Shown: one piece after another, positions 4,381 to 22,967 of the stretch
Position numbering within the stretch: position 1 is the first letter of the stretch
How the letters are laid out: each line of letters begins with the position of its first letter
Origin: Escherichia coli
GTDB taxonomy: Bacteria; Pseudomonadota; Gammaproteobacteria; Enterobacterales; Enterobacteriaceae
Reading direction: 5' to 3' (one strand)
Length of the DNA: 64,000 nucleotides
Assembly: GCF_030384885.1 (NCBI RefSeq)
Contig: NZ_CP128615.1
Translations under genes and position numbers: made by a program
Notes under the pieces: model-generated
What the model was told of the DNA's origin: nothing
What the model saw: only the letters and a program-made list of their open reading frames with translations
The model's database searches: none

Positions 4381-4430
4381 CGGGTTATCTGTCTGGAGAT
4401 TCAACTCTGTTTCCTCACAGGAGCTCTGTC

Positions 4431-5507: not shown

Positions 5508-5523
5508 CTCTTAGAAGGGCGTC

Positions 5524-5802
5524 CAGGGCAGTCAGTATGGCAGTGATGACTGGCAGCGGTTCTGCCGGGCCAATAATCTGGTACCGAGCATGAGCCGTCG
5601 CGGCAACTGCTGGGATAATGCAGTGGCAGAATCGTTCTTCAGTTCACTCAAAAAAGAGCGCATCAGGAAGCGGATATACAAAACCCGGGACATGGCCCGG
5701 GCGGATATTTTCGATTATATTGAAGTGTTCTACAACCGGGCCCGGCGCCACAGTCATCTCGGCGGCGTCAGCCCGGAGGCCTTCGAAAAGGCCTCGCAGT
5801 GA
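5524..5802 (+). pseudogene. IS3-family transposase OrfB, 3' part
   Basis: QGSQYGSDDWQRFCRANNLVPSMSRRGNCWDNAVAESFF...; same frame as 3540-4149 once the IS110 element is removed. Confidence 0.8.
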
Positions 5803-5909
5803 GGACAGAAACTGTCTACCGGAGCGTGGTCACTCCACATTTAAAGAAACGAGCTTTGGTAAACATACCTGTAATGACTCCATAAAATGGCGCGTCAAAC
5901 GACACCTAA

Positions 5910-7985
5910 TCAATTAACCCCAAGCGCCTTAAACACGGCATCGACGGGGTCTGCATAAAAGCTGATCTGGAATTTTGAGAACAACTCAGCAGGAACCGTT
6001 GGAATATCTGAGGCTGAGGCCATTGGGAGCAAAATACGCTTTGCGCCACTGTCCATAGCTAACTGAAGACTGCCTGCAAGATCTTGAACAGGATTGACGA
6101 CACCACCTAAAGTCATCTCACCCAAAACAACCATCTGCTCTTGAATCGGTCGGTTCATCAGAATTGAACAGAACGCAATTAATGCAGCGAGCGATGACTT
6201 TGTACTTGGCCCCGTATTGTGGAGCTCAACAACATGGAGGTGATACTCATGATCAGAAAACTTCGCCGACGCACTGATTCTATTCAGGTTACCTTTGAAA
6301 TAATCAAAGCCAACACGCACAGCTTCTTTCGCTGCGGTATTCGAACCAAGGCCAGACACTGAGTGTTTACCAGAACCAGCCATCATCTGGGTTTCATAGC
6401 GATATAACCCAAGCTGCCCAGTGCTTCCCTGAGTAACCAAGTGCACGACACCAGCGCGAGGTAAGCCCTCAGGAATTAGCTTGCTGCCACCTTGTTCCGG
6501 TACATTGATGAAGAATTCTTCTAATGAATCGTTATCGATGTAGCTAAAGTGCACATCAAAAAATTCCATTCCGCCAAGCTTTTTCAATTGCTCTTTGACT
6601 CTACGTCTAGTTTCCAGCGCATAGGTCAGGCAGGCTCTTACATCATCTTTTGTGTACTGTGCGTCGGGGTGTAGTAGCTTTAACAAGCCCGAAACAGTTC
6701 TGCGTACAGCAATTACATCACGCTGATTAAGGTTATTACCGAGTTTGAAGAACTTATCGATAGCATCCGCAAAACTTCTTTTGCGCATTTCACGCATGTA
6801 TTCAGCAAGATAGTCTGTGATTAATCCGTAACTATTGGTGAAAAACTCAGGACGCATCTTCGGTATTTCCCATCCAGGAATATAGGAATGGAAACGGTCA
6901 AAAAAAGCAGTGTCAATCATGGCTTCAGGAAAAGGTGCCAACAGATGACTGGTCTTCACCAGTGTCTCAACGCTTTGATTGATGTTACCGACGAATACCA
7001 TGGAAGCCTTCGCTTCGATTGAATCACGACCACGGGCAAAAGACCCTGACGCCATATAATCTTTCATTATTTGGACGCCGTCTTTGTCTTTAAAGTTAAT
7101 ACCCGCTACTTCATCAAAGGCGACAACATCCCACATTCCGACCAACCCAACTTGGCGCGAGCTCATGTTATAGAACAAGTTCGCCACAGTTGTTTGTCCG
7201 CCCGAGACAAGCAATGAGTTTGGTGAGCACTCCTTGTAGACATGGCTTTTACCTGTCCCTCTTGGTCCGAGCTCACAAACGTTGTAGTTGTTTTCAACGA
7301 ATGGGATCATACGAGTGATAAGATGCCATTTCACCCGATGCTCTAAGTTGGTTGGCTCCATACCCACGGAACGAAGCAACACATCCATCCACTGATCGGT
7401 ACTAAAATGTCTTCTGGTTGAAAACACCTCATCCATGTTCATGGACGGCATTTGTATCGGTTTTAAACTCATAATGGAGAAAGGTGATGTCTTCTGACCT
7501 TCCTCAAAGAAATACTGGACGGTAATAATGCACCAGATGCCGCCAGTTAATAATTTTTCGTTGTCTTGTACTATTTTGGTCGGTACAAGGGCATCCTTGA
7601 TACCCAGGTTCGACAACGCAGCTTCATAGACGTCTTTTTTCTGGTTGAGCTTAACGCTTACTTTGTCGATGATTTTAAACGTGCCGCGTTCACGGATCAG
7701 TGACTTCACTTTCTCCGCTTCATCTGGTCGGACATAGTTCTCAGCCAAGATTTTTTTTACATTATCAAGGCCTTGCATTACAACTTCGTCGTCATCGGAC
7801 GCACAATACATGCCTAGTAAATACTCAAGCACATAGACAGGGACGTTAGCGCCTTCTTTCAATTGCTTTGTCAGATCTTTTCGAACGACACGGCCTTTAA
7901 AATATTGGTTGAGCAATGCGTCTAAATCGGCGCTTTGCATCTGATTTTTTTCGTCTTTATGATCTTGTGAAAAATCAGTTGTCAT
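5910..7985 (-). CDS. brxL: BrxL (AAA+ / Lon-like protein of type I BREX)
   Basis: 691 aa; Walker A GPRGTGKSH; Lon-protease-like C-terminal domain; last gene of the BREX operon. Confidence 0.9.
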   Translation of the reverse strand: MTTDFSQDHKDEKNQMQSADLDALLNQYFKGRVVRKDLTKQLKEGANVPVYVLEYLLGMYCASDDDEVVMQGLDNVKKILAENYVRPDEAEKVKSLIRERGTFKIIDKVSVKLNQKKDVYEAALSNLGIKDALVPTKIVQDNEKLLTGGIWCIITVQYFFEEGQKTSPFSIMSLKPIQMPSMNMDEVFSTRRHFSTDQWMDVLLRSVGMEPTNLEHRVKWHLITRMIPFVENNYNVCELGPRGTGKSHVYKECSPNSLLVSGGQTTVANLFYNMSSRQVGLVGMWDVVAFDEVAGINFKDKDGVQIMKDYMASGSFARGRDSIEAKASMVFVGNINQSVETLVKTSHLLAPFPEAMIDTAFFDRFHSYIPGWEIPKMRPEFFTNSYGLITDYLAEYMREMRKRSFADAIDKFFKLGNNLNQRDVIAVRRTVSGLLKLLHPDAQYTKDDVRACLTYALETRRRVKEQLKKLGGMEFFDVHFSYIDNDSLEEFFINVPEQGGSKLIPEGLPRAGVVHLVTQGSTGQLGLYRYETQMMAGSGKHSVSGLGSNTAAKEAVRVGFDYFKGNLNRISASAKFSDHEYHLHVVELHNTGPSTKSSLAALIAFCSILMNRPIQEQMVVLGEMTLGGVVNPVQDLAGSLQLAMDSGAKRILLPMASASDIPTVPAELFSKFQISFYADPVDAVFKALGVN

Positions 7986-8001
7986 GTTTCACCTCAGCGC
8001 C

Positions 8002-10674
8002 TTAGAAAAAATCATCTTGGAATGCCAAATCAATGGTTACCGCGTATTGGCTATAACGGGTTCTCATTTCCGCATTCTCAAGAACTAATGTGTATTGAGC
8101 GTTTCTATCGAACTGGGAGCCAATAAGCTTTAACCTAGCTTCGCGAGTACGTTCATCCATCACTTTACTCACGCTATCAAAGTTAATCGTTTCACGACTG
8201 GAGACTTCATTACCTTGTGCATCGACGATATAGACATCCAACAACCGTGCGACGAAACGCTCGCCTACAGGGTCTGTCTGAATAAATCTGACCTTGTCGA
8301 TATTGTTTACTAATTTGATGGGCTGAGTGGCTGCTACAACACCTACCGGTTGTTTCTCATGTTTTGCTGCTTGTTCTTTTTGTAGCTCTCGCACATGTAG
8401 TACCGGTACGCAGACTTCCTGTAGCATCGCTCCGCCATGCACAAACTTAGCACCACCAACGAAGTGGAAGCGTTGAGCCGCTTTTGGAAGCAGGAACTCG
8501 GTATCACTTGAGCCATGAGCCGTATCGTTAATTGAGCCTTTCCAACAGGCTTCATCTGAAGGCAAGTTATTACCAACGATATAACGTTTCTTGGCTTCTA
8601 TCGCTCCAGCAGGTTTGGTTTTCAACGAGGTTTTGTCAGCCGCTACAAGTGCTTTTTGTTGGAAGAGGAAGCCATGGTCAGCAGTGATCACAACTCGGCT
8701 GCCGTTTAGACGGTTGATGACCCGCCCAACGAGGTCTTTTAGCTCTTCAATGGCACTACGACAGGCTTCAAACGTTTTCTCTTCAGTTGCTGCCTTATCA
8801 CCAATCGCATCAATGGTATCGTGATAGATATAAACGACTTCTACGTCTCGAACCTTGTCACGCCCCTCCTGGTTACTCCAGCTCATCAGTTCCTTAGAAC
8901 TCACTGCCATACCACCTACTTTTTGTAGGATGGCGTTGCGGTTGTCTAGACCCTGTGAAGAAATACCATCCACATAAACAGCCGTGCCTTGCTCTGGCTG
9001 GTAACTGAGCGCCTTATGAGGCAATAATGCCGCCATCCCAAGTTGGGTATAACTCGGCAAAACGCCCAACTGCGTAGACACCTCAGCCTTAAATCGCTTC
9101 TCGTTGTTAATGATAGCGCCAAGCTCATTCGCAATTTCAAAACGCAGGGCATCAGAGATGATCACAAACACTCGTTTTGTCTGTTTCAGACTCAGTCGTG
9201 TGCGAACTTCTTTTTCATAGAAGTCATACTGGTGCGGTACGCCAGAAATCTGCCACTTTTCAAGTAATTTTTCATTGGCCAAGTGACGATCCCATGCAAG
9301 GCCAAGCTCATACAAGTACCAGTTGGTATAAATGCTTTCGACTTCGTCGTCGAGCTGACGCAGTATGTCTGCACCTTTACTCAATACAGAGTGCACATGC
9401 TCATTGAACAAACGGTAAGCCTGGTCAAAACGATAAATGTCTGTGGTATAGGCGTCGTACATTGCTTTCGCGTTATCAAAGTGGAACCCATCCACATAGC
9501 GATTTCGCAAGTGCATTAACTCTTCAGCGTTGCGGATAGCTTCATAAATTGCGAAGTATTCTTTGCGTGACAATGTCCAGTGGCTAGAAAGACGTCTTGA
9601 TAAGACCGTATCAAACTGAACCCGGTCTAGCGCTTTACTGCTATCGAGCAAATCACGAACTAAACCACGGATTATGGCCTGTTCCACAGCTTCGAACGTT
9701 TCGCATTCGATAAGCTCAACCGGATGGTACTGCCCAGCACGAGTCGAAATTTCCAACTGTTGGCTAAGCACCTTAGAGATGCTTTCGTAGTAAGCGGCGA
9801 AAGAGCGGCTGTCGCGCCAGCTCACCATAAACGCCAAGGCTGTCGCCCGGCCTGATGCGCTTTTTAGAACATTGTTAAGCAACCAATCGCGTTCAACACC
9901 TTCAATTTGGCTCCAGAATTCAGTACAGAATAATTTCAACACGAAGTCTGAGAAGGTTGGCTCTTCAACTGTATAGCCAAAACCCTCACTCAGATATGCC
10001 CAGAGTGAGGTCTCAAGATCAAACTTTCCTAGCTGGCTCCATAAAGGTTGACCAAGGCTTTCATCTTCGATATAAGCCGCATATTCGCGTAGTAACCCAA
10101 GCAGAATGTCCGACAAAGACGCAGAATCAGCTTTTACAACCACTGCCATCATCTTTCTGTCTAACGACAGTTCGTCTTCGTTCTCAGTCACCCACTTTTT
10201 TAAACCGGCTATGCGCTGTTTATTGGCAAAAAAGCTCTGGCGCTTACGAATGTGCGTGCGAAGCGCCATTTTCGGAATACCCAGCTCATTAAGCAGCATT
10301 GAGCTGTGATCAGCAAAAAACTGCTCGCTATACAAACGCACGTCTAGCAACCAATCGCGGTCAGGCTCTGGCTCAGCGCTTGGAAAATAGATAAGGAATT
10401 TAGCTTCACGCTCATCTACTTCAATGCGTTTTTTCACTGCCAATACAGACTCATTGCCCATATTGAGGATGGTCAAATCATTTGGAAGCACCCGTGCAGT
10501 TTTATCCGCCGATTTATCGTCTGTTTCTTTTGCAAGCCCTTCTTTTGCAATAGAGAGGGCGTTAGCTAAATGCTCAAGCTCTTCAGTAAAGCTTTGCTCT
10601 GGGTCGTACCAAAACACAATGCGGCTTTGTTCAAATTTGGCAGCAACGCCTTGTGCCAGTTCACTAATCTGCAT
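8002..10674 (-). CDS. pglZ: PglZ (alkaline-phosphatase-superfamily BREX protein)
   Basis: 890 aa; VFVIISDALRFE and ITADHGF metal-site-like motifs; 1-nt overlap with pglX. Confidence 0.9.
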   Translation of the reverse strand: MQISELAQGVAAKFEQSRIVFWYDPEQSFTEELEHLANALSIAKEGLAKETDDKSADKTARVLPNDLTILNMGNESVLAVKKRIEVDEREAKFLIYFPSAEPEPDRDWLLDVRLYSEQFFADHSSMLLNELGIPKMALRTHIRKRQSFFANKQRIAGLKKWVTENEDELSLDRKMMAVVVKADSASLSDILLGLLREYAAYIEDESLGQPLWSQLGKFDLETSLWAYLSEGFGYTVEEPTFSDFVLKLFCTEFWSQIEGVERDWLLNNVLKSASGRATALAFMVSWRDSRSFAAYYESISKVLSQQLEISTRAGQYHPVELIECETFEAVEQAIIRGLVRDLLDSSKALDRVQFDTVLSRRLSSHWTLSRKEYFAIYEAIRNAEELMHLRNRYVDGFHFDNAKAMYDAYTTDIYRFDQAYRLFNEHVHSVLSKGADILRQLDDEVESIYTNWYLYELGLAWDRHLANEKLLEKWQISGVPHQYDFYEKEVRTRLSLKQTKRVFVIISDALRFEIANELGAIINNEKRFKAEVSTQLGVLPSYTQLGMAALLPHKALSYQPEQGTAVYVDGISSQGLDNRNAILQKVGGMAVSSKELMSWSNQEGRDKVRDVEVVYIYHDTIDAIGDKAATEEKTFEACRSAIEELKDLVGRVINRLNGSRVVITADHGFLFQQKALVAADKTSLKTKPAGAIEAKKRYIVGNNLPSDEACWKGSINDTAHGSSDTEFLLPKAAQRFHFVGGAKFVHGGAMLQEVCVPVLHVRELQKEQAAKHEKQPVGVVAATQPIKLVNNIDKVRFIQTDPVGERFVARLLDVYIVDAQGNEVSSRETINFDSVSKVMDERTREARLKLIGSQFDRNAQYTLVLENAEMRTRYSQYAVTIDLAFQDDFF

Positions 10675-13600
10675 TAGTTAACCTCCGGGGCCGAACCGGT
10701 AATGGCCTTAACATCAGCCAACAGATCACCAAACTTGCCGTAATTCACTTTCACGCCATCATCCAAATCCAGTGAAATACGCATATCAGCGTAGTGTTTT
10801 AGCTTGTCATCAAACTCGCGTAGTTCAACCTGTTTCTTGATTAAGGCATCCAACTCTTTCTTGAAGCGGTTCGCTTCACTGGTCGAGTCTGCCGTTTCAA
10901 TCTGCTTCTCAAGCTGCTCTGCATAAGCATCGTATTTGCCGAGTAACGGGGTGACATACTCGGTACGCATACGCGAAAGCGTGCCCTCGTTGTAACGGTG
11001 CAGGTAAACCAGGCACTCAAAAGCCTTCTGTTTGCCTGAGCTAAACAACCAATAAATAGGACGTTTTTTGTATGTCTTCAGGTGGTCTTTGTAGAATTGA
11101 GTCGATAAATAGCGGCGGATCGTCTCAAGAGCTGATTCTGATTTTTTGGGCTTTATGGCATTTAAGCACAGAGACTCTGCAACAAAATCGAGATTTTCTT
11201 GTAAGTGTTCTTCACCCCAAACAACTTGGACAAACTCGCGGAAACGATTGGTTGCGTCGTCCTTGAACCATTCTTGGTCGGTTAGGGGAATGATGCCATT
11301 TTCGTCGGCAGCAAAAGATTGATAAGCACCTTCGGCAACGAGTTTATCAAACCCATAATTACAAGCATGAGCGTAGACTAAGCCTTCACGATCAAGAGAG
11401 TAACGCCCCATCATGCAACCAATGGAGTAACTAATGAGTTCACAGGTTGTATCAGATTTTAACTTACTTAAATCAGTAGAATTTTCATATCGAAAAGCAG
11501 GGTTAGCAAATAATGATAGTGTTGAAATATCTATTGAAACCGGCACCGAAATTCCAAAATCATTGCATATTAAAGAATTAACTTCACTTTCCAAATTGGC
11601 TTGTTCATTAACTAGATTTAACTTCACTTCATTTAGAACCTGATAAGATTCAGCAATTTTGGCACGTTTTATTTTACACAGAGGCGAACATTCAAAGTTC
11701 CATGACGTTTCGTACATATCCCAATCAACCTTTGCGTTGGAAATTAAATCGCTCACCTTTTCAAACAATGCTTCTTTGTCAGCCTTATTGAAAATTGCCG
11801 GCAATGAGGCTATTTGACTCGTTTCATAGTTAAGCGTTGGCGAAATGATTTTTAACTGTTCCAGCACTACAGATGAGTTTAACTGAGCCAATAAGGCATA
11901 TTCTTCAATTCGAGAATTAAGAAATACTGATGCACCTGCAACGTCAAATATCGCTCCTTCAGGCTGCCATCTGAACGATGGAATTCCACTCGAAATTTTT
12001 GACCAAGTTACTGAGCTACGAAAATAAAATGCACCATTTTTCACAGTTCTAGTAGGAGACCCATACAAACTTTTAGCGTATGCAAATACCTCTTCACCTG
12101 CATTTTCCCAATTAATTACGTATTCCTGATTGCCATACCATTTTCTATATGAACCGCCTTTATTATATGGAAACCATTTGAATCCTGAGGATTCAGCTTC
12201 ATCTTTAGAACTAGAGTCATACATTGAGGTGTTTACTGGAACTTCATGCCATAGCCTTAAGAATCTATTATTATCACTTGTTTGACACCCAACTCTAGTT
12301 TTAGCAACTGACGATATTGGCGCGTCCATAAATGTATTTAATATTTCCTTGGCAACCCAATAAGCAATCGGACTCCCAGGAATCTTTTTGAAATCATCCT
12401 GAGCTGTCGCTGCAAATTCATTCTCTCTATTGAGCAATGCTTTTTGCTTTTCTTCTTCATTGCCATCTATCAGCCTATAAAAGGTAGGTTGATAATGATT
12501 GATGTGCTTATTTTGAATAATCCAGGCAGTAGTCTGTACAACCTCGCCACTAATCTGACTAAAAGCGCGTGCACCGAGGTGAGCCATAGTAATAAATGTA
12601 TGGTCTTCCAATAAATTGTTTCTTAGTTGCTCATAACTCGACAAGAACATCCACGATTGCATATTGATTTGAGCATTAAATCCATATTGAGAAAGCAATT
12701 TAAATGCTCGCTCCATAAAAATGGCAAACAAGTCTGATTTACTATTTGGGTATTGTTTCTTAGCAAACTCTTTCAAATCTGCATTCATTCCTTTTGCTCC
12801 CATATAGGGAGGATTAGCAATCACAGCATCGTAACGAATAGATAAAACCAAAGCCTGGTGAACAAACTCAATCAATTGCTTCGCTGCCAGCTTCTGCATT
12901 GAGTCGCCTGACTCTTGTAGCTCTACTAGCGTGCTCAGGAGCTCTTTTAGCTGTTCATGGTCATCGCTTGGTACATCAATCAATGAACCAAAGGTCTTGG
13001 CTTGAGTAAATCTTGCCAACGTTCGCTTCAGCAGTTGGTAGCGGTTGTCTGCATTGAACGAGCTTAAATCTTGCTCTTCGTCAGAGAACAGTCCTTGTGA
13101 TGTGCCGCTTTGCCAACTTCCCGATAGGTTGAGTGCTTTCCATAAGGTCGGCAGATCAATATGGTTACTTTCCTGCAATGACAGTACATTGAGTCGCACG
13201 TTACGGGTAAAAATACGCTTGTCGTCATCTCTCGCCATCATCATCAGGGCAAAGCCAGATAGCTGTGCTGCACGATCATCTATGTCCAAGCCGAAGAGGT
13301 TGTTCTCCAGGATCATCTTTGGAATGTCACGAGAGCGGAAACCACGTTCTTCGTAGATGGCTTTTAGTACGTTGTAAGCTTCAATCAGTATGTGGCCCGA
13401 GCCACAAGCGGGATCGAGTACTTTGATGGTTTCAGGTTCAATCGATTCTGGCGTAATAGCCTTTAGCTGTTGGTTAACTTCGTCAGATTGCTGCGCAGGC
13501 TCAATGTAGTATTCCATCTGGCTTTTAATGGCAGAGTCTGGGTAGGTTTGCAGCCATTGACGACCGACTGAGTTTTGTACCAGGTACTTTACAATCCAGT

Positions 13601-14342
13601 TAGGTGTAAATAGCTGAGTAGCGGCAGGAATGTCTTCACTTTTGACTACTTTTCCGATGACCTGATCTTTCTTTTCAGAAATGTAGAATTGGTAAAGCCA
13701 ACCAATCACTTCGACTTGTTGCCAGTCCTCTTCAGGGATGCCGTCTACCAATCCACGCAGAATGGAGTCGGTACGCATTAGGTTGTCTGGTAGCAGAAGC
13801 TCTGTTTCATCGTCCAATGCGTCAAATAAGAAAGGCATCGCTTCATGTAGCTTATGGCACTGGCCTAACAGCAGTTCACGATACAGCTCTTCGTCTTTGT
13901 TGCCCGCAAGCTTGAGTTCAACAATGCGAGCTCTATCTAATCCGAGTTCATCCGCAGCGTCTTGGGCATGGTCGATAATTTCAAAGCCTTTAGGGTTGTC
14001 TGGGTGCGACAAAACACGAAAACCGTGGCCTAGATAGTCATGGATTTCCATATAGCGAATAGCACACAGACGGTTGAACCAGGTATAAGCTACTTGTTCA
14101 ATAAGTTGTGCATACCCAAGTTTCTGGCTTCTGGCTACTATGCGTTTTCTGGGCTCGGCCAGTTTACCGTCAAAACTGTTACCAGCGATTTGAAGCACAG
14201 AACCTTGTAGATTCGCTTCTGCAATTTGTAGCTCGCCCTTTTTATTCGCGGTGATACCAAAGGTATTTAATCGTTTAGCTACCGCATCCATAAATTCGCG
14301 GCGCGCTTTTGGTGCGTATTTTTTAATGTTGTTCGTATTCAT
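10674..14342 (-). CDS. pglX: PglX, BREX N6-adenine DNA methyltransferase/specificity subunit
   Basis: 1222 aa; LDPACGSGHIL (SAM-binding) and VIANPPYMG (NPPY motif IV). Confidence 0.9.
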   Translation of the reverse strand: MNTNNIKKYAPKARREFMDAVAKRLNTFGITANKKGELQIAEANLQGSVLQIAGNSFDGKLAEPRKRIVARSQKLGYAQLIEQVAYTWFNRLCAIRYMEIHDYLGHGFRVLSHPDNPKGFEIIDHAQDAADELGLDRARIVELKLAGNKDEELYRELLLGQCHKLHEAMPFLFDALDDETELLLPDNLMRTDSILRGLVDGIPEEDWQQVEVIGWLYQFYISEKKDQVIGKVVKSEDIPAATQLFTPNWIVKYLVQNSVGRQWLQTYPDSAIKSQMEYYIEPAQQSDEVNQQLKAITPESIEPETIKVLDPACGSGHILIEAYNVLKAIYEERGFRSRDIPKMILENNLFGLDIDDRAAQLSGFALMMMARDDDKRIFTRNVRLNVLSLQESNHIDLPTLWKALNLSGSWQSGTSQGLFSDEEQDLSSFNADNRYQLLKRTLARFTQAKTFGSLIDVPSDDHEQLKELLSTLVELQESGDSMQKLAAKQLIEFVHQALVLSIRYDAVIANPPYMGAKGMNADLKEFAKKQYPNSKSDLFAIFMERAFKLLSQYGFNAQINMQSWMFLSSYEQLRNNLLEDHTFITMAHLGARAFSQISGEVVQTTAWIIQNKHINHYQPTFYRLIDGNEEEKQKALLNRENEFAATAQDDFKKIPGSPIAYWVAKEILNTFMDAPISSVAKTRVGCQTSDNNRFLRLWHEVPVNTSMYDSSSKDEAESSGFKWFPYNKGGSYRKWYGNQEYVINWENAGEEVFAYAKSLYGSPTRTVKNGAFYFRSSVTWSKISSGIPSFRWQPEGAIFDVAGASVFLNSRIEEYALLAQLNSSVVLEQLKIISPTLNYETSQIASLPAIFNKADKEALFEKVSDLISNAKVDWDMYETSWNFECSPLCKIKRAKIAESYQVLNEVKLNLVNEQANLESEVNSLICNDFGISVPVSIDISTLSLFANPAFRYENSTDLSKLKSDTTCELISYSIGCMMGRYSLDREGLVYAHACNYGFDKLVAEGAYQSFAADENGIIPLTDQEWFKDDATNRFREFVQVVWGEEHLQENLDFVAESLCLNAIKPKKSESALETIRRYLSTQFYKDHLKTYKKRPIYWLFSSGKQKAFECLVYLHRYNEGTLSRMRTEYVTPLLGKYDAYAEQLEKQIETADSTSEANRFKKELDALIKKQVELREFDDKLKHYADMRISLDLDDGVKVNYGKFGDLLADVKAITGSAPEVN

Positions 14343-14357
14343 ATGATCTTGCGCCTC

Positions 14358-16121
14358 TTATTCTGTCTCTACGCTGTTTGCGGGTTGTAATGCGGTTCTA
14401 ATGCGGGCAAGCAGTGTTTCCTGACGCTCGCGGTAAAAGTCCATAAACTGGTTTAGTTGTTCAGGTAATGATGTTATGGCTTGCGATTGCAGATGTGCTT
14501 GTCTTGCATTCACATCAGGCCACTGCTGCGCATACCATTCATGGGGCATTTTTTGCCGCTTCTGGTTGTTGATTGTCCCTTCCAACAGTTGAAGGTTTGG
14601 CAGCTTGTTAGATGCCTCGATGAGTTCATCTAGCTGTTCAGCTGGGACACCAACTTTTGCAAGCTTGTTACGCGTAAACAAACCTTTGGGGTAAATGTGG
14701 TCCACATGAAAGTGTCGTGAAAAATCGAATCCTGGGAACAACAAAGTCAACAAGGCAAAGGTACGCGGATTACCATAATCCAACTGCGCTAGTTCACTAA
14801 TTTCCTCTGGGTCAAAGCGCAACGATTTACCACGCTGTTGCATGGTCGCTTCAATTTTCGCTAGCGGGAAACCCGTATCACCCGATTGTTTAATGTCTGA
14901 GCGAAGCATAGTAAGCAGGGTATCCAAACCACTTCCCCAGATGCCTGACGCTTTCAACAACGACCTAATGAGCCAGTTTCTGATGCATTCTCTATCGACC
15001 GCATATTCAACCCTAGAAAGGTAGCTTGCCGTTAACTTTCGGTGGTGCAGGTAATAGGCTAACGGGAGGATGGCACTTGTTGCTCTGAGGTTTTGTGCAT
15101 TAAAACCAAAACTTGCCAGCAACTGCATTGAGAGCAATAACGCATCACGAATTGGCGTCCAGTTCTTTTCGAGAATCGCCATATTTTCCTTGTTAAAGTT
15201 CTCAACCTTAAAGCCCACGCTACCGATGTCAGAGAGCATTAAGCCTGCTTTTAAAACGAGATCTTTTGATACGTTGAATCCATCACCAACACGGTTCATC
15301 TCATCCACTAAGGCATGAATTTCTTCACGGGCATCTAACGAGCTCCACTGCGCTACGGCTATTGAAAGTAGTAAGTCTGAGTAGGACAAAGTAGTGCCGC
15401 CGCTATTCATGCGGATAAAGATATTCAGAACACGTTCAAGGCTCTGATCACTTTCTTCGTAAAACGAAATCTTATCTTTGTCATGGATAGTTCGATACAA
15501 GTGACGAAGAGTTGAGCGAGCCTCTTTGCGTTGCTCCGAGCTCAACCTAGCATCATCAGCAACTTCATCGATAAGTGCATCTTCTTCCTCTTCCATGATC
15601 CGGCCTACACGGAACCAGTATTGTTCAGATGCATCCAAAGAGGCTTTATCGTCGGTTAGGAACTCAAAGTCATACATCGACCCAGTTTCTAAGTCGGGCT
15701 GGCTTAACAGATTTAAGTGAAGCCTGCGCACTGGGAAGGCGTCATCATTGCTCCACCATTTACCTGTCAGCTTCCACGCAAATGAGCCGCGTAGGCCGAT
15801 GTTCAAAGCGGTAATCCGCTGCTGTCCATCTAGGACGGCAATGAACTCACGCTCTGGTAACTGAGTGACATTTTCACAATGGTAGTTATCTCGCTCATGG
15901 TAATGCTGCATGAACTGATAAAACTGATAGCTATGCCGGTTCTCTGGTTTTATCTTCCAGAATAGAAAGGTCCCAAACGGGTAACCTTGCAACAGGCTAT
16001 CAAATAGACGACAGATCTGTTCTGGTCGCCATACAAACTCTCGCTGGATGGCCGGTAACAGGTATTCCTGCTCAGCAACCTTGTCGAGTAATGATCTTAT
16101 TGTTCCACCCGCTTGATACAT
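14358..16121 (-). CDS. DUF262/DUF1524 GmrSD-like (BrxU-like) putative type IV restriction enzyme embedded in the BREX operon
   Basis: 587 aa; N-terminal IQREFVW...LDGQQR (DUF262/ParB-like NTPase); C-terminal HVDHIYPK...LQLLEGTINNQK (His-Me/HNH-like DUF1524). Confidence 0.8.
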   Translation of the reverse strand: MYQAGGTIRSLLDKVAEQEYLLPAIQREFVWRPEQICRLFDSLLQGYPFGTFLFWKIKPENRHSYQFYQFMQHYHERDNYHCENVTQLPEREFIAVLDGQQRITALNIGLRGSFAWKLTGKWWSNDDAFPVRRLHLNLLSQPDLETGSMYDFEFLTDDKASLDASEQYWFRVGRIMEEEEDALIDEVADDARLSSEQRKEARSTLRHLYRTIHDKDKISFYEESDQSLERVLNIFIRMNSGGTTLSYSDLLLSIAVAQWSSLDAREEIHALVDEMNRVGDGFNVSKDLVLKAGLMLSDIGSVGFKVENFNKENMAILEKNWTPIRDALLLSMQLLASFGFNAQNLRATSAILPLAYYLHHRKLTASYLSRVEYAVDRECIRNWLIRSLLKASGIWGSGLDTLLTMLRSDIKQSGDTGFPLAKIEATMQQRGKSLRFDPEEISELAQLDYGNPRTFALLTLLFPGFDFSRHFHVDHIYPKGLFTRNKLAKVGVPAEQLDELIEASNKLPNLQLLEGTINNQKRQKMPHEWYAQQWPDVNARQAHLQSQAITSLPEQLNQFMDFYRERQETLLARIRTALQPANSVETE

Positions 16122-16137
16122 AGTTATCCGTTGCCTC

Positions 16138-19100
16138 TTACTTAATTCTTACTCGGTCGCCAGCTTTGACCGCAGCAATCAGCTGCTCTCTTAAAGCGGC
16201 AAGATAGGCATCAACTTCGGCTTCACTTTCAATGAATCCGGTTGTTACTGACTTAGCCATGGCATCGGTTGAGTTAATCGTTACGGTACGTTTTGCAACC
16301 GGCTGTGGCTGCACTGGTTCAGAGGCTGGCTCAGGTGCTGGAGCTGCTTTACCGGCTTTCGCTGCTTCCTCTTCGCGTGTCTGCTGTTCGAGTTCACGAC
16401 GTCTTTGCTCAGCTTCAGCTTTTTTGCGTTGATCTTCGATAAAGCCATTCAGCAACTCATAGGCTTCGTCCTCGTAACCTTCCGCTTCAGTTTGCTCACT
16501 GATAATTTGTGGTATTGAAGAGGTCGCTTCAATACGCTGTCTGCACATTTGTAACGGGCGCAGTGCTTGGTTCTGTAATTCAGACGGTGCATGAGCTTCA
16601 GCTAGCGCTTCTTTTACACGTCCGATGCGCAGATCAACACGCTCTAAGGCATGAGTGCGTTTTTCTTCAACCAATGTTGAGTTAATTTTTGCCACCTGCT
16701 CGATAAGCGGATTAATGTGGCGCAGCTGCTCATACGGCGAGGGCATATTGTAAATGCGTTCTAATTCAGTGAGCGCTTTTAATGCTTCACTGTCTTTTTC
16801 TAACGCAGGTCTATTGGCCTTAAACTTCTCGTTCAATGCGCCAGCAAGGGCTTGCCAAGTTTGAAATTGGCTATTGTAGAAGTCATCAAGATCCTCAAAG
16901 TCCTCAGCAAACTCTTCAAGGGCATCAGCGTTTTCTAAGAATCGGGTGATAAGAGCGAAGCTTGAAGTTTGCTCAAGAATACCCGCGACCAATGCAAGAC
17001 CATCGTCAATTTGAGATTTACCTGGGAAATGGCCTGTCTGTGACTTGGTTCTGAATGATTTAAGCTCTTCATTCCAAGCCAGTAATTCATCGCGCACTAA
17101 TTCGTAGAGCTCCTTTTCACCAGAGCCGGTAAAGGTTTTTGAAAAGATCTCTTTAACAAGACCAGCAGCCTTTTTGATTTGGCGCTCGTCATGTTGCCTG
17201 ATTTTATGTACACGGATCTCACCGCGTTTACGCACGCTGGTAAACGGCTCGTAAGCTTTTTTCAACGCCAGATCTGTGCCCTGGGTACTAAAAGATAACT
17301 TTCCAGCCAAGCCCAGCCTTGCAGTGAGCAATAAGATTTCATTGTCTGGCCAGCCATACGGGCGCTTGCCGAAGTGGGCAACGATGTCACGTAAGTAAAC
17401 AGGCTCATTACGCTCGACTTTTAGCGTTACGTACTGCTCAACCTCACGCGTAGCTTCTGGGTTACATTCATCCGCTTGAAGATCCAGTCCAATCTGAGCA
17501 ATATCATCAGCAACAAGTACGGCCTGTAGCTCACGCAAAACTTCACCAGGCGTCGCCTTGAGCATGTTCAATTTAGCGAAGGTGTTTTCGATAACGTATT
17601 TGTATGCTTCTTCGACGATGGCACTTGGCGTTGCTGATTTCTTCGGTAGTTTTGTGCCGATAGCGTAAACGTCAGCCTCTGCAAACAAAGCTTCAAAATC
17701 CGTTCTTAAGCGTTTTTCACGCTCAATATTTTCCATCTGCTTTTCGCGGAGAAGGTGTTCTTGCTCTGGTCGCTGTCCTGAATTTTGTTTTAAGAATCGG
17801 TCAGTTTTTATAAAGGTTGTCAGGTCATCCCAAAGACGTTTATGTTCGCCCAGCTTGACGAGCACGCACCCATCAGCCTCAAGCGTATGATTGATGCAGG
17901 CTTGATCGTGGGAGTAATTTTCAAAGTGCGAATCCAAAGGTGAAATGACTTTAATGACTAGATCTTCCAGCGTGGTGCCATCTTTTGGATGACCATTGCA
18001 AAAACGGCTCACCGCAAAGTCTTGCTTATTAATCGGGTATCGATAGGCACGATTACCTTTCAAAATACCGTCAAATACGATTGCTGAAAGCTTGTTAGAG
18101 ACCTCTGACATTTCAACGTCAGTGTGGCGGATCTCGTTTTCAATCTCTTTTTCTTCGTTGGTCAGGAAGATAAATTCATCACCATTACGCGCAATCAGCA
18201 ATTGGCGTTCAAGACGATTCAAGCTCTCTTCAATTTGTTTACGCAGCGCAATTTTATCTGCATCGATTCGATCAATTGACAGCGTCACAAGGTTGTCTAG
18301 TGTGCTTTTGACAACGTCCACATAACGGATCAAGAAAAGAGTTTTTAGAATCTTGCCATCGAATTCTGTTAAGGAATCCAACTCACAGGCTTGGTCAATC
18401 GTTCGCTTAACCGCTGGCTCCAAAAAGCTTTCAATCGGTGCATAGAAACTGTAAAACGGGATTAACACATCAAGGCCAGAGTCCTTCATCTGTTTTGCAG
18501 CTGATTGGAAAGCATCAAGTAATGAACGCTCACCCATGGCTAAGTGCTTACCCGTCGCGCCTTTTGTTCGAATTGACTCAAACACTTTTTGAACCAGCGT
18601 GTAGTGGTAAGGCACAAACGGATAGTTGTCCACGAAAGACGGAGCGTCGGTGTAGCCCTTTAGAGACGCAGTTGTCGTTTTATCAAATGTCAGCTGGTTA
18701 CGAAGAATGTCGCCCTTTTCAGCAAACACATCGATGAGGTGTGTACGAGCTTCTTCCGTTTTGGACAACAAACGCTTTTGAATAACTTCCGAGGTATTCG
18801 AGCTCGACAGCTGCAAGCGGGTACTAAAACGCCCTTGAATTTTAGAGAAGTCCTCGCCATCGCGCTTATCCATACCACCAATGGCAGCATCAATGTCTGC
18901 CTGAGAGGTAACAACGACCCAAGCTCTGCCACCACAATATGTGCCAAGATCTTCAGTAATGGTCTGAAGCTTCAACATCATTTGTGTGTTCTTACCGATA
19001 AACTGACCGACTTCATCGACTAAGAAAAGAAGGTTACGATCTCCAGTTCGATCTAAGTATTCATTAACCCACTTACAGAAGTTTCGGATATCTAGCGGGA

Positions 19101-19815
19101 AATTGTTTTCAACCTGTTCAACCCACGCTTTGGCAGACTCTAATGATTGCTCACTGGCATGAGCGAGTGCTTCTGAAAGTTCGTCTCGATAGAAGTCATA
19201 GGCGTCACGCTCCTTTTCCCAAGTTGATTGAGTCAACTCAGCAAATTTGTCCTTGAAAGACATGTATTGATTACGCTTATCAAGCTCGCGTTCTAAATGC
19301 GCAATGTGAGGAAAATCAGCGCAGTATCCTACACGCTCATTAAAGACTTTGAGGAAGACCTTAAGAATGGCATTTTCTCGGTCATCCGTATTGGCTCGTG
19401 AATCGATGTTAAAAAGAATAACATCAGTGTCTTTGGTAACAGCGTTTTGGATATCGGCCAACAGCATGGCATCGTTGATTTTGTCTTTAAAAAACTCAAA
19501 TGCTTGACGGCCTTGGCCATCCTTTTCGACAGACTTATTTTCGAGGAGGTAAGACAAAATTTTCAGGAAGTGAGACTTACCCGAACCAAAGAAGCCAGAG
19601 ATCCACACACCAATTTTTCCTGACATTGATGCGCCACTTTGCGTCACAGATGGAACGTAAGCCTCAAAGAAAGCGCGAAAATGTCGATCTAGCTCTCGGG
19701 TTACAACATACTCATCAAGTTCGACATACACACTGTCATTGTCTTTCTGTTCCGCTTTAACAACGCCGTTAATATCACGCGTCAACTTCTTGGAAAAAAT
19801 CTGTTCAATTTTCAT
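16138..19815 (-). CDS. brxC: BrxC/PglY large P-loop ATPase
   Basis: 1225 aa; GFFGSGKSHFLK Walker A, LLFLVDEVGQF Walker B; position after brxB. Confidence 0.9.
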   Translation of the reverse strand: MKIEQIFSKKLTRDINGVVKAEQKDNDSVYVELDEYVVTRELDRHFRAFFEAYVPSVTQSGASMSGKIGVWISGFFGSGKSHFLKILSYLLENKSVEKDGQGRQAFEFFKDKINDAMLLADIQNAVTKDTDVILFNIDSRANTDDRENAILKVFLKVFNERVGYCADFPHIAHLERELDKRNQYMSFKDKFAELTQSTWEKERDAYDFYRDELSEALAHASEQSLESAKAWVEQVENNFPLDIRNFCKWVNEYLDRTGDRNLLFLVDEVGQFIGKNTQMMLKLQTITEDLGTYCGGRAWVVVTSQADIDAAIGGMDKRDGEDFSKIQGRFSTRLQLSSSNTSEVIQKRLLSKTEEARTHLIDVFAEKGDILRNQLTFDKTTTASLKGYTDAPSFVDNYPFVPYHYTLVQKVFESIRTKGATGKHLAMGERSLLDAFQSAAKQMKDSGLDVLIPFYSFYAPIESFLEPAVKRTIDQACELDSLTEFDGKILKTLFLIRYVDVVKSTLDNLVTLSIDRIDADKIALRKQIEESLNRLERQLLIARNGDEFIFLTNEEKEIENEIRHTDVEMSEVSNKLSAIVFDGILKGNRAYRYPINKQDFAVSRFCNGHPKDGTTLEDLVIKVISPLDSHFENYSHDQACINHTLEADGCVLVKLGEHKRLWDDLTTFIKTDRFLKQNSGQRPEQEHLLREKQMENIEREKRLRTDFEALFAEADVYAIGTKLPKKSATPSAIVEEAYKYVIENTFAKLNMLKATPGEVLRELQAVLVADDIAQIGLDLQADECNPEATREVEQYVTLKVERNEPVYLRDIVAHFGKRPYGWPDNEILLLTARLGLAGKLSFSTQGTDLALKKAYEPFTSVRKRGEIRVHKIRQHDERQIKKAAGLVKEIFSKTFTGSGEKELYELVRDELLAWNEELKSFRTKSQTGHFPGKSQIDDGLALVAGILEQTSSFALITRFLENADALEEFAEDFEDLDDFYNSQFQTWQALAGALNEKFKANRPALEKDSEALKALTELERIYNMPSPYEQLRHINPLIEQVAKINSTLVEEKRTHALERVDLRIGRVKEALAEAHAPSELQNQALRPLQMCRQRIEATSSIPQIISEQTEAEGYEDEAYELLNGFIEDQRKKAEAEQRRRELEQQTREEEAAKAGKAAPAPEPASEPVQPQPVAKRTVTINSTDAMAKSVTTGFIESEAEVDAYLAALREQLIAAVKAGDRVRIK

Positions 19816-19833
19816 TCGGGAGGCTCCCTGCTC

Positions 19834-20427
19834 TTAATTTTTTTTACCGTCTTCAGGCACAAGCTTGAAGGCGCGATAGTAGTTTTTAGATTCGATCATG
19901 CCGAAAGGATGCAAATCCCTTCCGCTATATTCACCCGGATAGAAAAGCACTAATGGCGTGCTACCCATAACGTCTTGCAGAGCACTAAGTAACTCATGTC
20001 CTCGGATAAGAGGCCACGCACTGCCTAAGCCTGACAGCAACACAAACTCAAGTTCTGATGGCTTATATTTGTCCGCGATATACCTTGCCACTTTCTCTTG
20101 GCTCAGAGGCCCGGCTAGTGTTTTTCGAAGGCCATCAACACCGACTTGCAATTCACGCTGGCAAGCTCGGTCGAAAAGGCCTCGCTCCTCAAGCATATCT
20201 ATCAAGACTTCAAAAATATTGAGATGGACAAAGCGGTAACCACGCTTGTTGAGTTTTTCGTCAACGTGCTTAATGTGCTCTCGTACAAGCAGTTCATACT
20301 TGGCTGGATAGTCAAATACCCAAAATCCAATTTCATTGCCCAAGCCATCGTTTTTCAAAAACTTAGGGCTTTCAATTCGTTCCAGTATCAGATCAAGCCT
20401 GGTCTGAAGAGCCTTCATATTGTGCAC
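19834..20427 (-). CDS. brxB: BrxB (DUF1788-type)
   Basis: 197 aa; canonical size and position; 13-nt overlap with brxA. Confidence 0.8.
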   Translation of the reverse strand: MHNMKALQTRLDLILERIESPKFLKNDGLGNEIGFWVFDYPAKYELLVREHIKHVDEKLNKRGYRFVHLNIFEVLIDMLEERGLFDRACQRELQVGVDGLRKTLAGPLSQEKVARYIADKYKPSELEFVLLSGLGSAWPLIRGHELLSALQDVMGSTPLVLFYPGEYSGRDLHPFGMIESKNYYRAFKLVPEDGKKN

Positions 20428-21014
20428 TCCATTACCTCAATCAAATCTTCCCGGCCCAGACGAACTAACCAGTCTTTAACTTCTGGCATTAGGTAAACAG
20501 GTTGTATTTTCTTTGTCCTGCTATCACTCAGGTAGCCACTATCAACCAGTGCCTTAATTGCGTTGTTACCCATTTTTTTGACAGTTGAGTCAGAAAAACC
20601 GCCAAGCTCAGCATATGCCCGCACTCTCGTGTCATAAAACTCAGACCATGCATCAGCGGTTAAAGAGGGTTTATAGGTGCGACGAGCTTCGGCTAAGGTA
20701 AGTCGCATAAAATAAGCGACAACCGGAGAATGAATGAGTAATGACATCATCAGCATTTGGACATAGGCACGTTCACTCGCGGCTAAAAGATCAGTCATAA
20801 ACTCATCACCCAGGCCTTCAATACGCCAACGGATTGTTCTGGCATAACGAATAGCCGTCTGACCGGATTTTTTCTGAAGAACATTTTGCTCAACGATCAG
20901 CGACTTCCACTCATCTTCTGGAAGTTTTTTCAATAGCGATTCTGCGATTATTCTAGATTCAGTTATCAATAAACTGCCTCCGATAAGATCGCCTAAATAT
21001 TCTTTTATATTCAT
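20415..21014 (-). CDS. brxA: BrxA (DUF1819-type)
   Basis: 199 aa; canonical size and position as first core BREX gene. Confidence 0.75.
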   Translation of the reverse strand: MNIKEYLGDLIGGSLLITESRIIAESLLKKLPEDEWKSLIVEQNVLQKKSGQTAIRYARTIRWRIEGLGDEFMTDLLAASERAYVQMLMMSLLIHSPVVAYFMRLTLAEARRTYKPSLTADAWSEFYDTRVRAYAELGGFSDSTVKKMGNNAIKALVDSGYLSDSRTKKIQPVYLMPEVKDWLVRLGREDLIEVMECTI

Positions 21015-21023
21015 AAATTCATC

Positions 21024-21950
21024 TCACGATTCGCTATATCCAGGAGCGAGTGCAGCATTGTCAACGCCGTATAGTGCTTCTGGATTTTTAAGTGCTAAAT
21101 GGAACTCTCGCCCATTGCTCTTACAATTCTTTGAACAATCGATATTCCATAAACGCAGTAAATATCCAGCGAACGCAGCTCTTATCTCTACACGCAACCT
21201 ATTGTTTTCCATTGCGTAGTCCATCGATACAGCTTCTGGATGTGCTAGTTTTGGATGAGGTATCAGCTCTAGCTCAACGATTCGGTTCCATTGCTTATCC
21301 CACTGAAGAGTCTCAACTTCGTCGTTAACCTCATCCTCTAACAACTCAACTTCACTTATTCTGGTTAAAACAAAATCCCTAAATTCTCTAAGCTTTCTAT
21401 CGAATGCTCGGACATGCCATCTCAAGCCATTGTCAATCAGGGTATGAGGAACTATTTGCCTGCTCCCATGACCACTCGACAATGAGGTGTACTCAATATT
21501 AATCACAGCGCGCTTATGTATGGCTTCACTAATAGCCGCTACAACTTCCAATTTCGGCTTATTGAGATGGAATGGTGCTTCACAAGCCATAGGTGGCCTG
21601 GCCTTGCCAAGAAAGCCATCACCGAACCCTTGGCTTATCGTCGCAAGAGTTCGAACAACGTCATAATCAAACAACGGCTGGAATGCGCTCGTCTTCAAGT
21701 GCACTCTGCGCTTTTCGTCATACATAACGTTGTTAGGAGCCAACTCTTTGTACCGCGCAAAATCTTGTGTTGCCACAGACGGCGCTACGCTAAATCGCTC
21801 GGTTAAATAACTACGCCCAGCTTCACCTTTAAATAACAAAGTGAAATCAATATGAGCGAGTCGTTCTCTCTGTGCTTGGCTAAGCTCTTCAAGTCCAGTG
21901 TTGTCTTGCACTGTCAGCCTCTCAATCCATCTGGGACAAGCCCTAATCAT
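21024..21950 (-). CDS. brxR: BrxR-like WYL-domain transcriptional regulator
   Basis: 308 aa; wHTH-like N-terminus; WYL-like GLRWHVRAFDRKLREFRDFVLTRI; 9 nt upstream of brxA. Confidence 0.75.
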   Translation of the reverse strand: MIRACPRWIERLTVQDNTGLEELSQAQRERLAHIDFTLLFKGEAGRSYLTERFSVAPSVATQDFARYKELAPNNVMYDEKRRVHLKTSAFQPLFDYDVVRTLATISQGFGDGFLGKARPPMACEAPFHLNKPKLEVVAAISEAIHKRAVINIEYTSLSSGHGSRQIVPHTLIDNGLRWHVRAFDRKLREFRDFVLTRISEVELLEDEVNDEVETLQWDKQWNRIVELELIPHPKLAHPEAVSMDYAMENNRLRVEIRAAFAGYLLRLWNIDCSKNCKSNGREFHLALKNPEALYGVDNAALAPGYSES

Positions 21951-22019
21951 TTAAAACTAGGAAGCCATCGATTGAATGCCATCAAGCAACCTACTTTTTT
22001 TCATTAGGTATCATAGTAT

Positions 22020-22037
22020 CAACAAGTCGTCTTGTTG
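22020..22037. promoter_or_regulatory. inverted repeat CAACAAG-N4-CTTGTTG upstream of brxR (candidate operator)
   Basis: Perfect 7-bp arms about 70 nt upstream of the brxR start, in an AT-rich stretch. Confidence 0.3.
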
Positions 22038-22166
22038 GCTATAAAAATTGGCTTGACGTTGTTCGAATGTTTCTTTTCTGGCCTTGATAGAAGCTCACGC
22101 TGGAATGCCAACTGACGCAATTCATTCTCTCGAACACGCCTAGCAACTTCTGCCTGGGCTGGTAGC

Positions 22167-22269
22167 TGATCTTGACCCTCCATCTCCGAACAGCTTTTGT
22201 ATCTTAAGTTAACGATGTCCGCTGCCGCCGGTATTCCCTCGGGGAGTGATATCCCAGCGCGCTGTGCGG
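22167..22269 (-). mobile_element. IS2-like right-end remnant (orfB 3' end + inverted-repeat-like terminus)
   Basis: Minus strand encodes ...[21 protein letters not shown] (IS2 OrfB-like C-terminus), followed by an IR-like ...GGGTCAAGATCA end at 22167. Cut by IS1 at 22270. Confidence 0.55.
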
Positions 22270-22545
22270 GTGGCTTCCATTTCCATCAGATGTCCTTCCT
22301 GCTCCGCTACTGAAGGCGTGGTGCGTAACGGCAAAAGCACTGCCGGACATCAGCGCTATCTCTGCTCTCACTGCCGTAAAACATGGCAACTACAGTTCAC
22401 TTACACCGCCTCTCAGCCCGGTACGCACCAGAAAATCATTGATATGGCCATGAATGGCGTTGGATGCCGGGCAACCGCCCGCATTATGGGCGTTGGCCTC
22501 AACACGATTTTACGTCACTTAAAAAACTCAGACCGCAGTCGGTAA
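22270..22545 (+). CDS. insA: IS1 InsA
   Basis: [43 protein letters not shown]... Confidence 0.85.
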
Positions 22546-22967
22546 CCTCACGCATACAACCGGGCAGTGACGTCATTGTTTGCGCGGAAATGGACGAACA
22601 GTGGGGTTATGTCGGCGCTAAATCACGCCAGCGCTGGTTGTTTTACGCGTATGACAGGATACGGAGGACGGTTGTGGCGCACGTATTCGGTGAACGCACG
22701 TTGTCCACGCTGGAGCGTCTTCTGGGCCTGCTGTCGGCCTTTGAGGTCGTGGTATGGATGACGGATGGCTGGCCGCTTTATGAATCACGCCTGAAGGGAG
22801 AACTGCACGTTATCAGCAAGCGATATAAGCAGCGCATTGAGCGGCATAACCTGAATCTGAGGCAGCATCTGTCAAGGCTGGGCAGGAAGTCACTGTCGTT
22901 CTCAAAATCGGTGGCGCTGCATGACAAAGTCATCGGGCATTATCTGAACATAAAACACTATCAGTAA
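22464..22967 (+). CDS. insB: IS1 InsB frame (expressed as InsAB' by frameshift)
   Basis: 167-aa ORF ...[26 protein letters not shown]... Confidence 0.85.

Follow-up and report, generated by a model that had tools for sequence, protein, structure and literature searches.

The closest described relative of the locus analysed here is the phage-defence island of plasmid pEFER from Escherichia fergusonii ATCC 35469 (NC_011743), characterised in Picton et al. 2021 and 2022. The pEFER island methylates GCTAAT in a PglX-dependent manner; its bacteriophage exclusion (BREX) system protects against one set of coliphages and its restriction enzyme BrxU against another, with BrxU cleaving, in the presence of nucleoside triphosphate (NTP), DNA that contains 5-methylcytosine (5mC), 5-hydroxymethylcytosine (5hmC) or glucosyl-5hmC (PMC8565348). 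Two operators, R-BOX1 and R-BOX2, were defined experimentally in the same island and are both bound by the dimeric BrxR repressor, and promoter activity was found upstream of brxR (strong) and brxA only, with none upstream of brxS (PMC9122601). The locus described here occupies positions 5910-21950, on the minus strand, of a 64,000-nucleotide stretch of Escherichia coli contig NZ_CP128615.1 (assembly GCF_030384885.1); the whole of this stretch was analysed and is called the window below.

The gene order of this block from brxR to brxL is the same as in pEFER. Matches to hidden Markov models (HMMs), matches to solved structures and this synteny all indicate that the type I BREX operon is complete, has a WYL regulator and is carried by a resistance plasmid. 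It is highly probable that the block is an intact phage-defence island of the type found in pEFER and in the integrative and conjugative element (ICE) R391, carried by an IncR-like resistance plasmid and composed of three functional units, namely BrxR, BREX and BrxU.

Gene content of the defence block

Eight minus-strand open reading frames (ORFs) make up the block in the order brxR-brxA-brxB-brxC-brxU-pglX-pglZ-brxL, with gaps of -13 to +18 bp, and in the ORF list of the window none of the eight (0/8) contains an internal stop. The initial annotation, made from the letters alone, had described eight co-directional, tightly packed genes in this order, with a gene X between brxC and pglX; its coordinates were exact, and the three HMM libraries used for family assignment (PADLOC, Pfam and NCBIfam) agreed on the assignments, gene X now being brxU. 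The genes are as follows.

21024-21950, minus strand: brxR, WYL-domain winged helix-turn-helix (wHTH) transcriptional repressor; longest ORF 308 amino acids (aa); WYL 7e-18, Pfam WYL 2e-12
20415-21014, minus strand: brxA (DUF1819), 199 aa; PADLOC BrxA 5e-108, Pfam BrxA 7e-39, PDB 7ZGE 8e-125
19834-20427, minus strand: brxB (DUF1788), ORF of 197 aa (194 aa from the start at 20418 in the RefSeq annotation); PADLOC BrxB 6e-71, Pfam 1e-35
16138-19815, minus strand: brxC, P-loop ATPase, 1225 aa; PADLOC 1536 bits, NCBIfam BREX_BrxC (NF033441) 1221 bits against a cut-off of 400
14358-16121, minus strand: brxU, GmrSD-family type IV modification-dependent restriction enzyme, 587 aa, between brxC and pglX
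10674-14342, minus strand: pglX, BREX-1 N6-adenine methyltransferase and specificity factor, 1222 aa; NCBIfam BREX_1_MTaseX (NF033452) 1528 bits against a cut-off of 500
8002-10674, minus strand: pglZ, type A PglZ (alkaline-phosphatase superfamily), 890 aa; TIGR02687 945 bits against a cut-off of 270, Pfam PglZ 3e-72
5910-7985, minus strand: brxL, Lon-like ATPase, 691 aa; TIGR02653 1347 bits against a cut-off of 628, PADLOC 1162 bits

The components that define BREX-1 are all present: a gamma-class N6-adenine methyltransferase PglX with both the NPPY motif (residue 510) and a match to the BREX-1 PglX model, a type A PglZ, a P-loop BrxC and a Lon-like BrxL, the NCBIfam scores of these four proteins lying several-fold over the curated cut-offs. 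BrxC has three BrxC domains in Pfam and a Walker A motif, GFFGSGKS, at residue 74. PglX scores 1589 bits against the PADLOC PglX model, matches Eco57I/N6_Mtase/MmeI_Mtase in Pfam and aligns over its full length to PDB 8C45, 8ZEK and 9EWZ. PglZ scores 1145 bits in PADLOC, the start of its gene overlapping the pglX stop by 1 bp, while BrxL contains the Pfam domains BrxL_N, BrxL_ATPase and Lon_C and a Walker A motif, GPRGTGKS, at residue 240. The signature motifs that had been called readable were therefore recovered, those of BrxC, BrxL and PglX as motifs and those of PglZ and the Lon-like protein by profile, and every family proposed (BrxA, BrxB, BrxC, PglX, PglZ, BrxL and WYL) was assigned by profile HMM in a frame without internal stops, a set of matches far in excess of what chance would produce. 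Rfam and tandem-repeat searches gave no match within the block, and no long homopolymer or simple-sequence tract suggestive of phase variation was found in it, two T8 runs only being present.

The sole interruption of the BREX-1 gene set is brxU between brxC and pglX, the position at which pEFER-type islands embed a GmrSD-family brxU. The protein matches Pfam GmrSD_N/DUF262 at 5e-34, carries DGQQR at residue 98 and is identified by PADLOC as HEC-05 (776 bits). Its match to PDB 7P9K/7P9M is full-length (residues 1-587; 1330 bits), and it differs from the crystallised pEFER BrxU at 3 of 587 residues (99.5% identity). The architecture is that of GmrSD type IV enzymes, in which an N-terminal DUF262 NTPase domain with DGQQR is joined to a C-terminal DUF1524 HNH nuclease domain; the C-terminal domain, without a separate Pfam match, is covered by the 1-587 alignment to 7P9K. 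The block is thus two defence systems, BREX and BrxU, plus a regulator, rather than one eight-gene BREX system.

The seven proteins other than PglX show 96.8-99.7% identity to their pEFER counterparts (BrxR 96.8%, BrxA 97.0%, BrxB 98.5%, BrxC 98.7%, BrxU 99.5%, PglZ 98.9% and BrxL 99.7%), in agreement with the relationship to pEFER that had been proposed for comparison, and three of them match solved pEFER structures (BrxR 7QFZ, BrxA 7ZGE and BrxU 7P9K). PglZ differs from that of pEFER by a 5-aa insertion, AKEGL, at residues 43-47. Beside this insertion, five substitutions are clustered within residues 43-58, the remainder of the protein being ~99% identical.

The PglX specificity module and its predicted target

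The eighth protein, PglX, is 75.4% identical to that of pEFER overall, and the difference is concentrated in one part of the protein: identity falls to 37% over residues 501-640 and to 40% over residues 641-1000. In a sliding comparison it is 95-100% up to residue ~480 and from residue ~1025 onwards, and 23-70% between; divergence from pEFER is confined to residues about 520-1020. Divergence from the commoner allele of pECO-6dfa begins at residue ~640, and at the DNA level the gaps in homology within pglX span 11443-12792 (pEFER) and 11446-12348 (pECO-6dfa). The variable region maps to the part that the structures of Salmonella PglX and E. coli BrxX define as target recognition domain and spacer helices, and its G+C content is ~39%, against ~46% in the remaining island.

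11343-12422, minus strand: variable specificity module of pglX, residues 641-1000, consisting of the target recognition domain and spacer helices

Five islands were compared for their PglX modules, namely those of the window, pEFER and pECO-6dfa and, on chromosomes, those of NMBU_W05E18 and Ec1120. All five modules are distinct, with pairwise identities of 35-49% over residues 641-1000, while the N-terminal 500 and C-terminal 220 residues are 96-99% identical among the five. The pglX allele of the window is rare on plasmids (2 of 72,556 PLSDB records); the exact protein is found on 145 public contigs, where it is named BREX-1 PglX. It is 99% identical to a Morganella morganii PglX and, over 1052 residues, to the Providencia rettgeri protein AAM07997.1, being the same as the latter from residue 651 to 1222, a span that takes in the specificity module. 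Because accession AAM07997.1 adjoins those cited for the BREX ORFs of ICE R391 hotspot 5 (PMC7251087), that protein is probably from R391, and the module of the window is most likely the R391 one.

These comparisons raise the possibility that the pEFER-type island moves among IncR/IncY plasmids, ICEs and chromosomal islands as a constant chassis with exchangeable PglX cassettes, the present cassette directing BREX to a so far unreported 6-bp motif, predicted as NTAAAG; this proposal is about as likely as not. If true, it would be a parallel to the hsdS shuffling of type I restriction-modification systems. The natural series of modules on an otherwise unchanged island could also be used as ready-made data from which to learn how BREX methyltransferases recognise their targets.

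The prediction of the motif draws on two published sources. In the structure of E. coli BrxX with DNA, R751 reads G1, K681/D684 read G2, Q784 reads base pair 3, N823 reads A4 and the loop 587-601 reads G6 (PMC11842806). Design rules were derived by Went et al. by following how residues covary in PglX homologues whose motifs are assigned: A684V/S687Q gives T at position 2, D801V (with K782F) gives A at position 3, and T802A/S838N gives A at position 4 (PMC11341690). The contact positions were mapped onto the PglX of the window via HMMER and MAFFT alignments, the register of which was validated by recovery of the published Salmonella residues, and the residues found there are V684/Q687, T766/K768, K782, V801, A802 and N838. 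Of these, N838 is the equivalent of E. coli BrxX N823, which contacts A4. The base-6 loop (residues 589-603), which belongs to the methyltransferase domain, is of full length, LGARAFSQISGEVVQ, as in the two enzymes that read G6, and the pEFER loop is three residues shorter.

From these residues, a target resembling NTAAAG is tentatively predicted, GTAAAG being its most likely form; G at position 1 is plausible because a lysine stands where G1-reading enzymes have arginine. Since the specificity module differs from that of pEFER (40% identity and a different length of the base-6 loop), the motif is very probably other than GCTAAT. Several observations weigh against the specific prediction. Most PglX mutants engineered from the same covariation rules were inactive, and the sole active one showed no more than relaxed specificity (PMC11341690), which makes the motif prediction weak. 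Moreover, K782 in the protein of the window departs from the position-3 rule, in which V801 goes together with F782, and T766/K768 matches no listed rule for position 1.

Regulation, boundaries and alternative explanations

BrxR residues 14-308 match the crystallised pEFER BrxR (PDB 7QFZ) at 1e-193, with further matches to 7TB5, 9C5G and 7T8K; the wHTH plus WYL architecture and the homology to solved BrxR and CapW structures place it among the BrxR/CapW WYL regulators. As the crystallised pEFER protein corresponds to residues 14-308, the true start of brxR is probably Met14 at 21911. As in pEFER, brxR lies directly upstream of the operon and is accompanied by two operators.

21986-22012, minus strand: R-BOX1, BrxR operator with 11-bp inverted repeats and a 5-bp spacer, reading GATACCTAATGAAAAAAAGTAGGTTGC and aligned with pEFER 12820-12846
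21194-21220, minus strand: R-BOX2, second BrxR operator, in the 3' part of brxR and upstream of PbrxA; 27 of 27 positions as in pEFER

R-BOX1 agrees with pEFER at 24 of 27 positions and sits just 3' of the predicted -10 element of PbrxR (TACTAT, 22013-22018). BrxR itself differs from that of pEFER by 10 substitutions, 7 of which are also found in the Ec1120 chromosomal island, and an R-BOX1 variant similar to that of the window occurs in the same island. Given this recurrence, the changes in BrxR and R-BOX1 are read as natural variation, not decay. In total, 216 bp upstream of brxR are kept, with the predicted -10 element and R-BOX1, whereas brxS and most of brxT, which in pEFER lie upstream of brxR, are gone owing to the insertion at 22167. 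In Ec1120, a full-length ORF of 191 aa is located upstream of brxR, of which pEFER brxT looks like a truncated form. A sigma-70 promoter and terminator pattern scan of the block found fewer promoter-like sites than in shuffled sequence and missed PbrxR, and is thus uninformative; the sole terminator-like hairpin, a weak one, is 3' of brxL at 5906-5889.

By analogy with the characterised homologues, a BrxR dimer would bind R-BOX1 3' of PbrxR and R-BOX2 upstream of PbrxA and thereby repress the operon. PglX would read a non-palindromic 6-bp motif and N6-methylate its fifth base, an adenine, on host DNA, and unmethylated motifs of an incoming phage would be sensed by PglX within a BrxBCXZ complex, with phage replication blocked as a consequence; fifth-adenine methylation and exclusion of unmethylated phage have been demonstrated for the pEFER homologue only (PMC8565348). 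BrxU, as an NTP-dependent GmrSD-type enzyme, is expected to cut DNA containing 5mC, 5hmC or glucosyl-5hmC and so may cover T-even-like phages, the modified DNA of which escapes BREX. For the present island, activity in its host and regulatory behaviour, like the motif, are deduced from such homology.

Both edges of the block are formed by insertion sequences (ISs).

3234-5837, plus strand: left boundary, IS3-family element with inverted repeats at 3234-3258 and 5813-5837 (TGGAGTGACC...GGTCACTCCA)
22167-22273, plus strand: right boundary, terminal ~107 bp of a different, multicopy IS3-family element, starting TGATCTTGACCC

On the left, the brxL stop at 5910 is 72 bp past the IS end at 5837, as had been stated; as a refinement, the element was found to be split by an IS110-family insertion (transposase 4431-5507). 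No target-site duplication was found at this element, its flanks being TAA and CAT. Homology to the island ends at 5836 in the chromosomal copies, and pEFER-type plasmids keep the IS end. The sequence at 3195-3233 (TGGATTTGCCCCTATATTTCCAGACAC...), which abuts the left inverted repeat of the IS3-family element, is presumably a terminal sequence of IS2; with this end included, several IS fragments are nested in the left flank. On the right, the IS end that had been placed at 22167 is real, while its description as IS2-like gave way to that of a 107-bp remnant of an IS3-family element cut by IS1. The element it derives from occupies as many as 15 sites in a single E. coli genome, and the IS1-family element that cuts the stump at about 22270 extends over about 22270-22986, its right inverted repeat ending at 22986. 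Neither a left inverted repeat of the IS1-family element nor an inverted repeat pairing with 22167 was found, and since these repeat searches were empty the former element is taken as left-truncated and the IS3-family piece as a stump. Homology to pEFER-type and chromosomal islands ends at 22161-22166.

In the Ec1120 E. coli chromosome (L006 25156-27111), the island is flanked by hpt and gcd and has a tyrosine integrase beside it. This integrase context and the probable R391 link suggest that the island originated as an integrative element and was then captured onto plasmids by IS-mediated events. It could alternatively be supposed that the block moves as a unit by means of its two flanking IS ends, as a composite transposon would, given that IS3-family termini abut it at 5837 and 22167 and that the same island occurs on IncR/IncY plasmids and on chromosomes of several genera. 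This explanation is unlikely. The two ends come from different elements with dissimilar termini, rather than from the same or compatible ISs; the right one is a 107-bp stump that lacks a transposase, and no target-site duplication accompanies the left one. The breakpoint at 22167 is moreover specific to this sub-lineage, as pEFER-type plasmids run on into brxT, and the chromosomal copy between hpt and gcd has a tyrosine integrase at its side, while the PglX allele recurs in the P. rettgeri protein attributed to ICE R391. These points favour integrase- or ICE-borne spread combined with IS-mediated recombination, and of the "mobilisable defence island" in the initial annotation the defence island stands and the mobilisable part is not supported, as the IS ends differ and a target-site duplication is lacking.

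The loss of upstream sequence also raises the question of whether the block is a silent or crippled remnant, in which BREX is left unexpressed or non-methylating by the mutated R-BOX1 and by an IS3/IS1 insertion that, at 216 bp from brxR on its upstream side, took away brxS/brxT along with any further control from there. Homology to pEFER stops at 22166 with brxS and most of brxT gone, and these accessory genes were termed necessary for BREX methylation in the later paper from the laboratory of the pEFER work (PMC9122601). R-BOX1 is changed at 3 of 27 positions and, together with the ten substitutions in BrxR, this means that regulation may differ from that of pEFER; PbrxR, furthermore, was not flagged by the simple sigma-70 promoter scan of the block. 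All of this detracts from the view of the island as intact. The pEFER promoter activity, however, lies proximal to brxR with none upstream of brxS, and the aligned stretch falls within the retained 216 bp. All eight ORFs are intact, the block is 100% identical in four independent E. coli plasmids and the PglX is found on 145 contigs, a conservation that argues for selection, not decay; the Ec1120 chromosomal island, too, has a similar R-BOX1 variant and similar, though not identical, BrxR substitutions. A remnant is therefore considered very unlikely. That PglX is a stand-alone type IIG/IIL restriction-modification enzyme and not a BREX specificity subunit is scarcely credible, even though its top PADLOC model is REase_MTase_IIG (1781 bits against 1589 for PglX) and its methyltransferase and recognition domains are homologous to MmeI. 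The NCBIfam BREX-1 PglX model is covered whole at 1528 bits, the full-length structural relatives are BREX PglX/BrxX proteins and the gene order is canonical for BREX-1; on these grounds the assignment to type IIG was rejected. The protein is, in addition, 96-99% identical to pEFER PglX outside the module, and the methylation and defence of pEFER are BREX phenotypes.

Plasmid context and comparison with known systems

An intact island of pEFER/R391 type thus being the preferred reading, its surroundings are those of a resistance plasmid. The window contains a Rep3 initiator, a ParA homologue, umuC, tet(A)/tetR, aph(3'')-Ib, aph(6)-Id and Tn3-family transposons, so that the proposed multiresistance plasmid is reasonable; parB (51137-52114), adjacent to the ParA homologue, was assigned by homology to pEFER ParB alone. 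The plasmid is IncR-like. Other features are listed below, the Rfam matches for UptR and the IS1222 element being above the gathering score.

1-1149: GajA-like OLD-family ATPase/TOPRIM gene, C-terminal two thirds, the frame leaving the window at its start; PADLOC GajA 6e-73, profile positions 155-531
1134-2156: GajB-like UvrD gene, short (340 aa); PADLOC 2e-47
2446-2676 and 2673-3089: vapB and vapC, also called vagCD
24927-25044, plus strand: IS1222 frameshift element, Rfam 152 bits
45673-46245: tandem array, 15.5 copies of a 37-bp unit, also in pEFER
47460-49277, minus strand: group II intron, with Rfam domains D1-D4 at 49052-49277 (187 bits) and reverse-transcriptase ORFs at 47460-49047
53711-54086: tandem array next to the Rep3 gene, 10.4 copies of a 36-bp unit, also in pEFER
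56896-57639, minus strand: match to the candidate defence family PDC-S67, 247 aa; PADLOC 4e-45, beside an integrase-like gene at 56270-56899
61192-61283, plus strand: UptR small RNA, Rfam 123 bits

The OLD/UvrD pair and vagCD noted beside the block are accordingly a Gabija-like pair at 1-2156, which is absent from pEFER, and vapBC at 2446-3089. The 36-bp array beside Rep3 probably represents iterons. The group II intron is located just upstream of the umuDC region (umuC start 49784). In the pEFER backbone, a gene of the same size as the PDC-S67 candidate (WP_000129823.1) stands in the same arrangement beside a site-specific integrase, the likeness being one of size and position. With BREX and BrxU, a Gabija-like pair, a VapBC module and a PDC-S67 candidate, the window depicts a resistance plasmid with layered anti-phage defence, which matters for phage therapy of strains with plasmids of this kind.

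The block itself is widespread. A stretch of 16,401 bases (5800-22200) that includes both IS junctions is 100% identical in CP024857 (AR_0011, IncR), CP080127 (PK8568), JBTHWC010000002 (YZB902) and CP123330 (AREA_497). These four E. coli plasmids are from chicken, human and other sources, and the Prokaryotic Genome Annotation Pipeline (PGAP) annotates BREX-1, a DUF262 protein and a WYL protein on them. At least 80% of the block at ~97% identity was found in 55 PLSDB plasmids and in 44 of 5426 complete E. coli genomes, and among the carriers are plasmids of the IncR and IncY types, plasmids of Salmonella and Klebsiella and chromosomes of E. coli. The plasmid mosaic around the block differs from that of the four plasmids with the identical block, and no record holding the whole window was found in the set of complete E. 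coli genomes, in which coverage of the 22-25 kb flanks reached 68% and 76% in the best matches. The plasmid combines known parts into a new mosaic.

Both the type of island and its exact sequence are thus already known, the type having been studied by genetic, biochemical and structural means, the pEFER version having been tested and the identical sequence annotated in RefSeq, and what sets the present copy apart is a PglX allele with a rarer recognition module. With pEFER, the locus shares, beyond gene order and near-identical proteins, the IS3-family end 3' of brxL and an IncR-type backbone (rep, parAB, umuDC, vapBC and strAB); it differs in the lack of brxS/brxT, in three R-BOX1 substitutions and in a PglX of 75% identity. 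The BREX systems at hotspot 5 of SXT/R391 ICEs (ICE R391 of Providencia rettgeri and ICEPmiIre01 of Proteus mirabilis; PMC7251087) also have an extra ORF between brxC and pglX, their carrier being an ICE instead of a plasmid, and the comparison with them rests on the PglX protein. More distant are the BREX systems of E. coli HS (BrxX, GGTAAG) and Salmonella D23580 (PglX, GATCAG), which have the same six core genes; the former, as published, is without brxR or brxU, and the latter embeds PARIS (ariAB) instead of brxU. The PglX of the window has the same base-6 loop as these two enzymes and differs from them in the residues that read bases 1-3.

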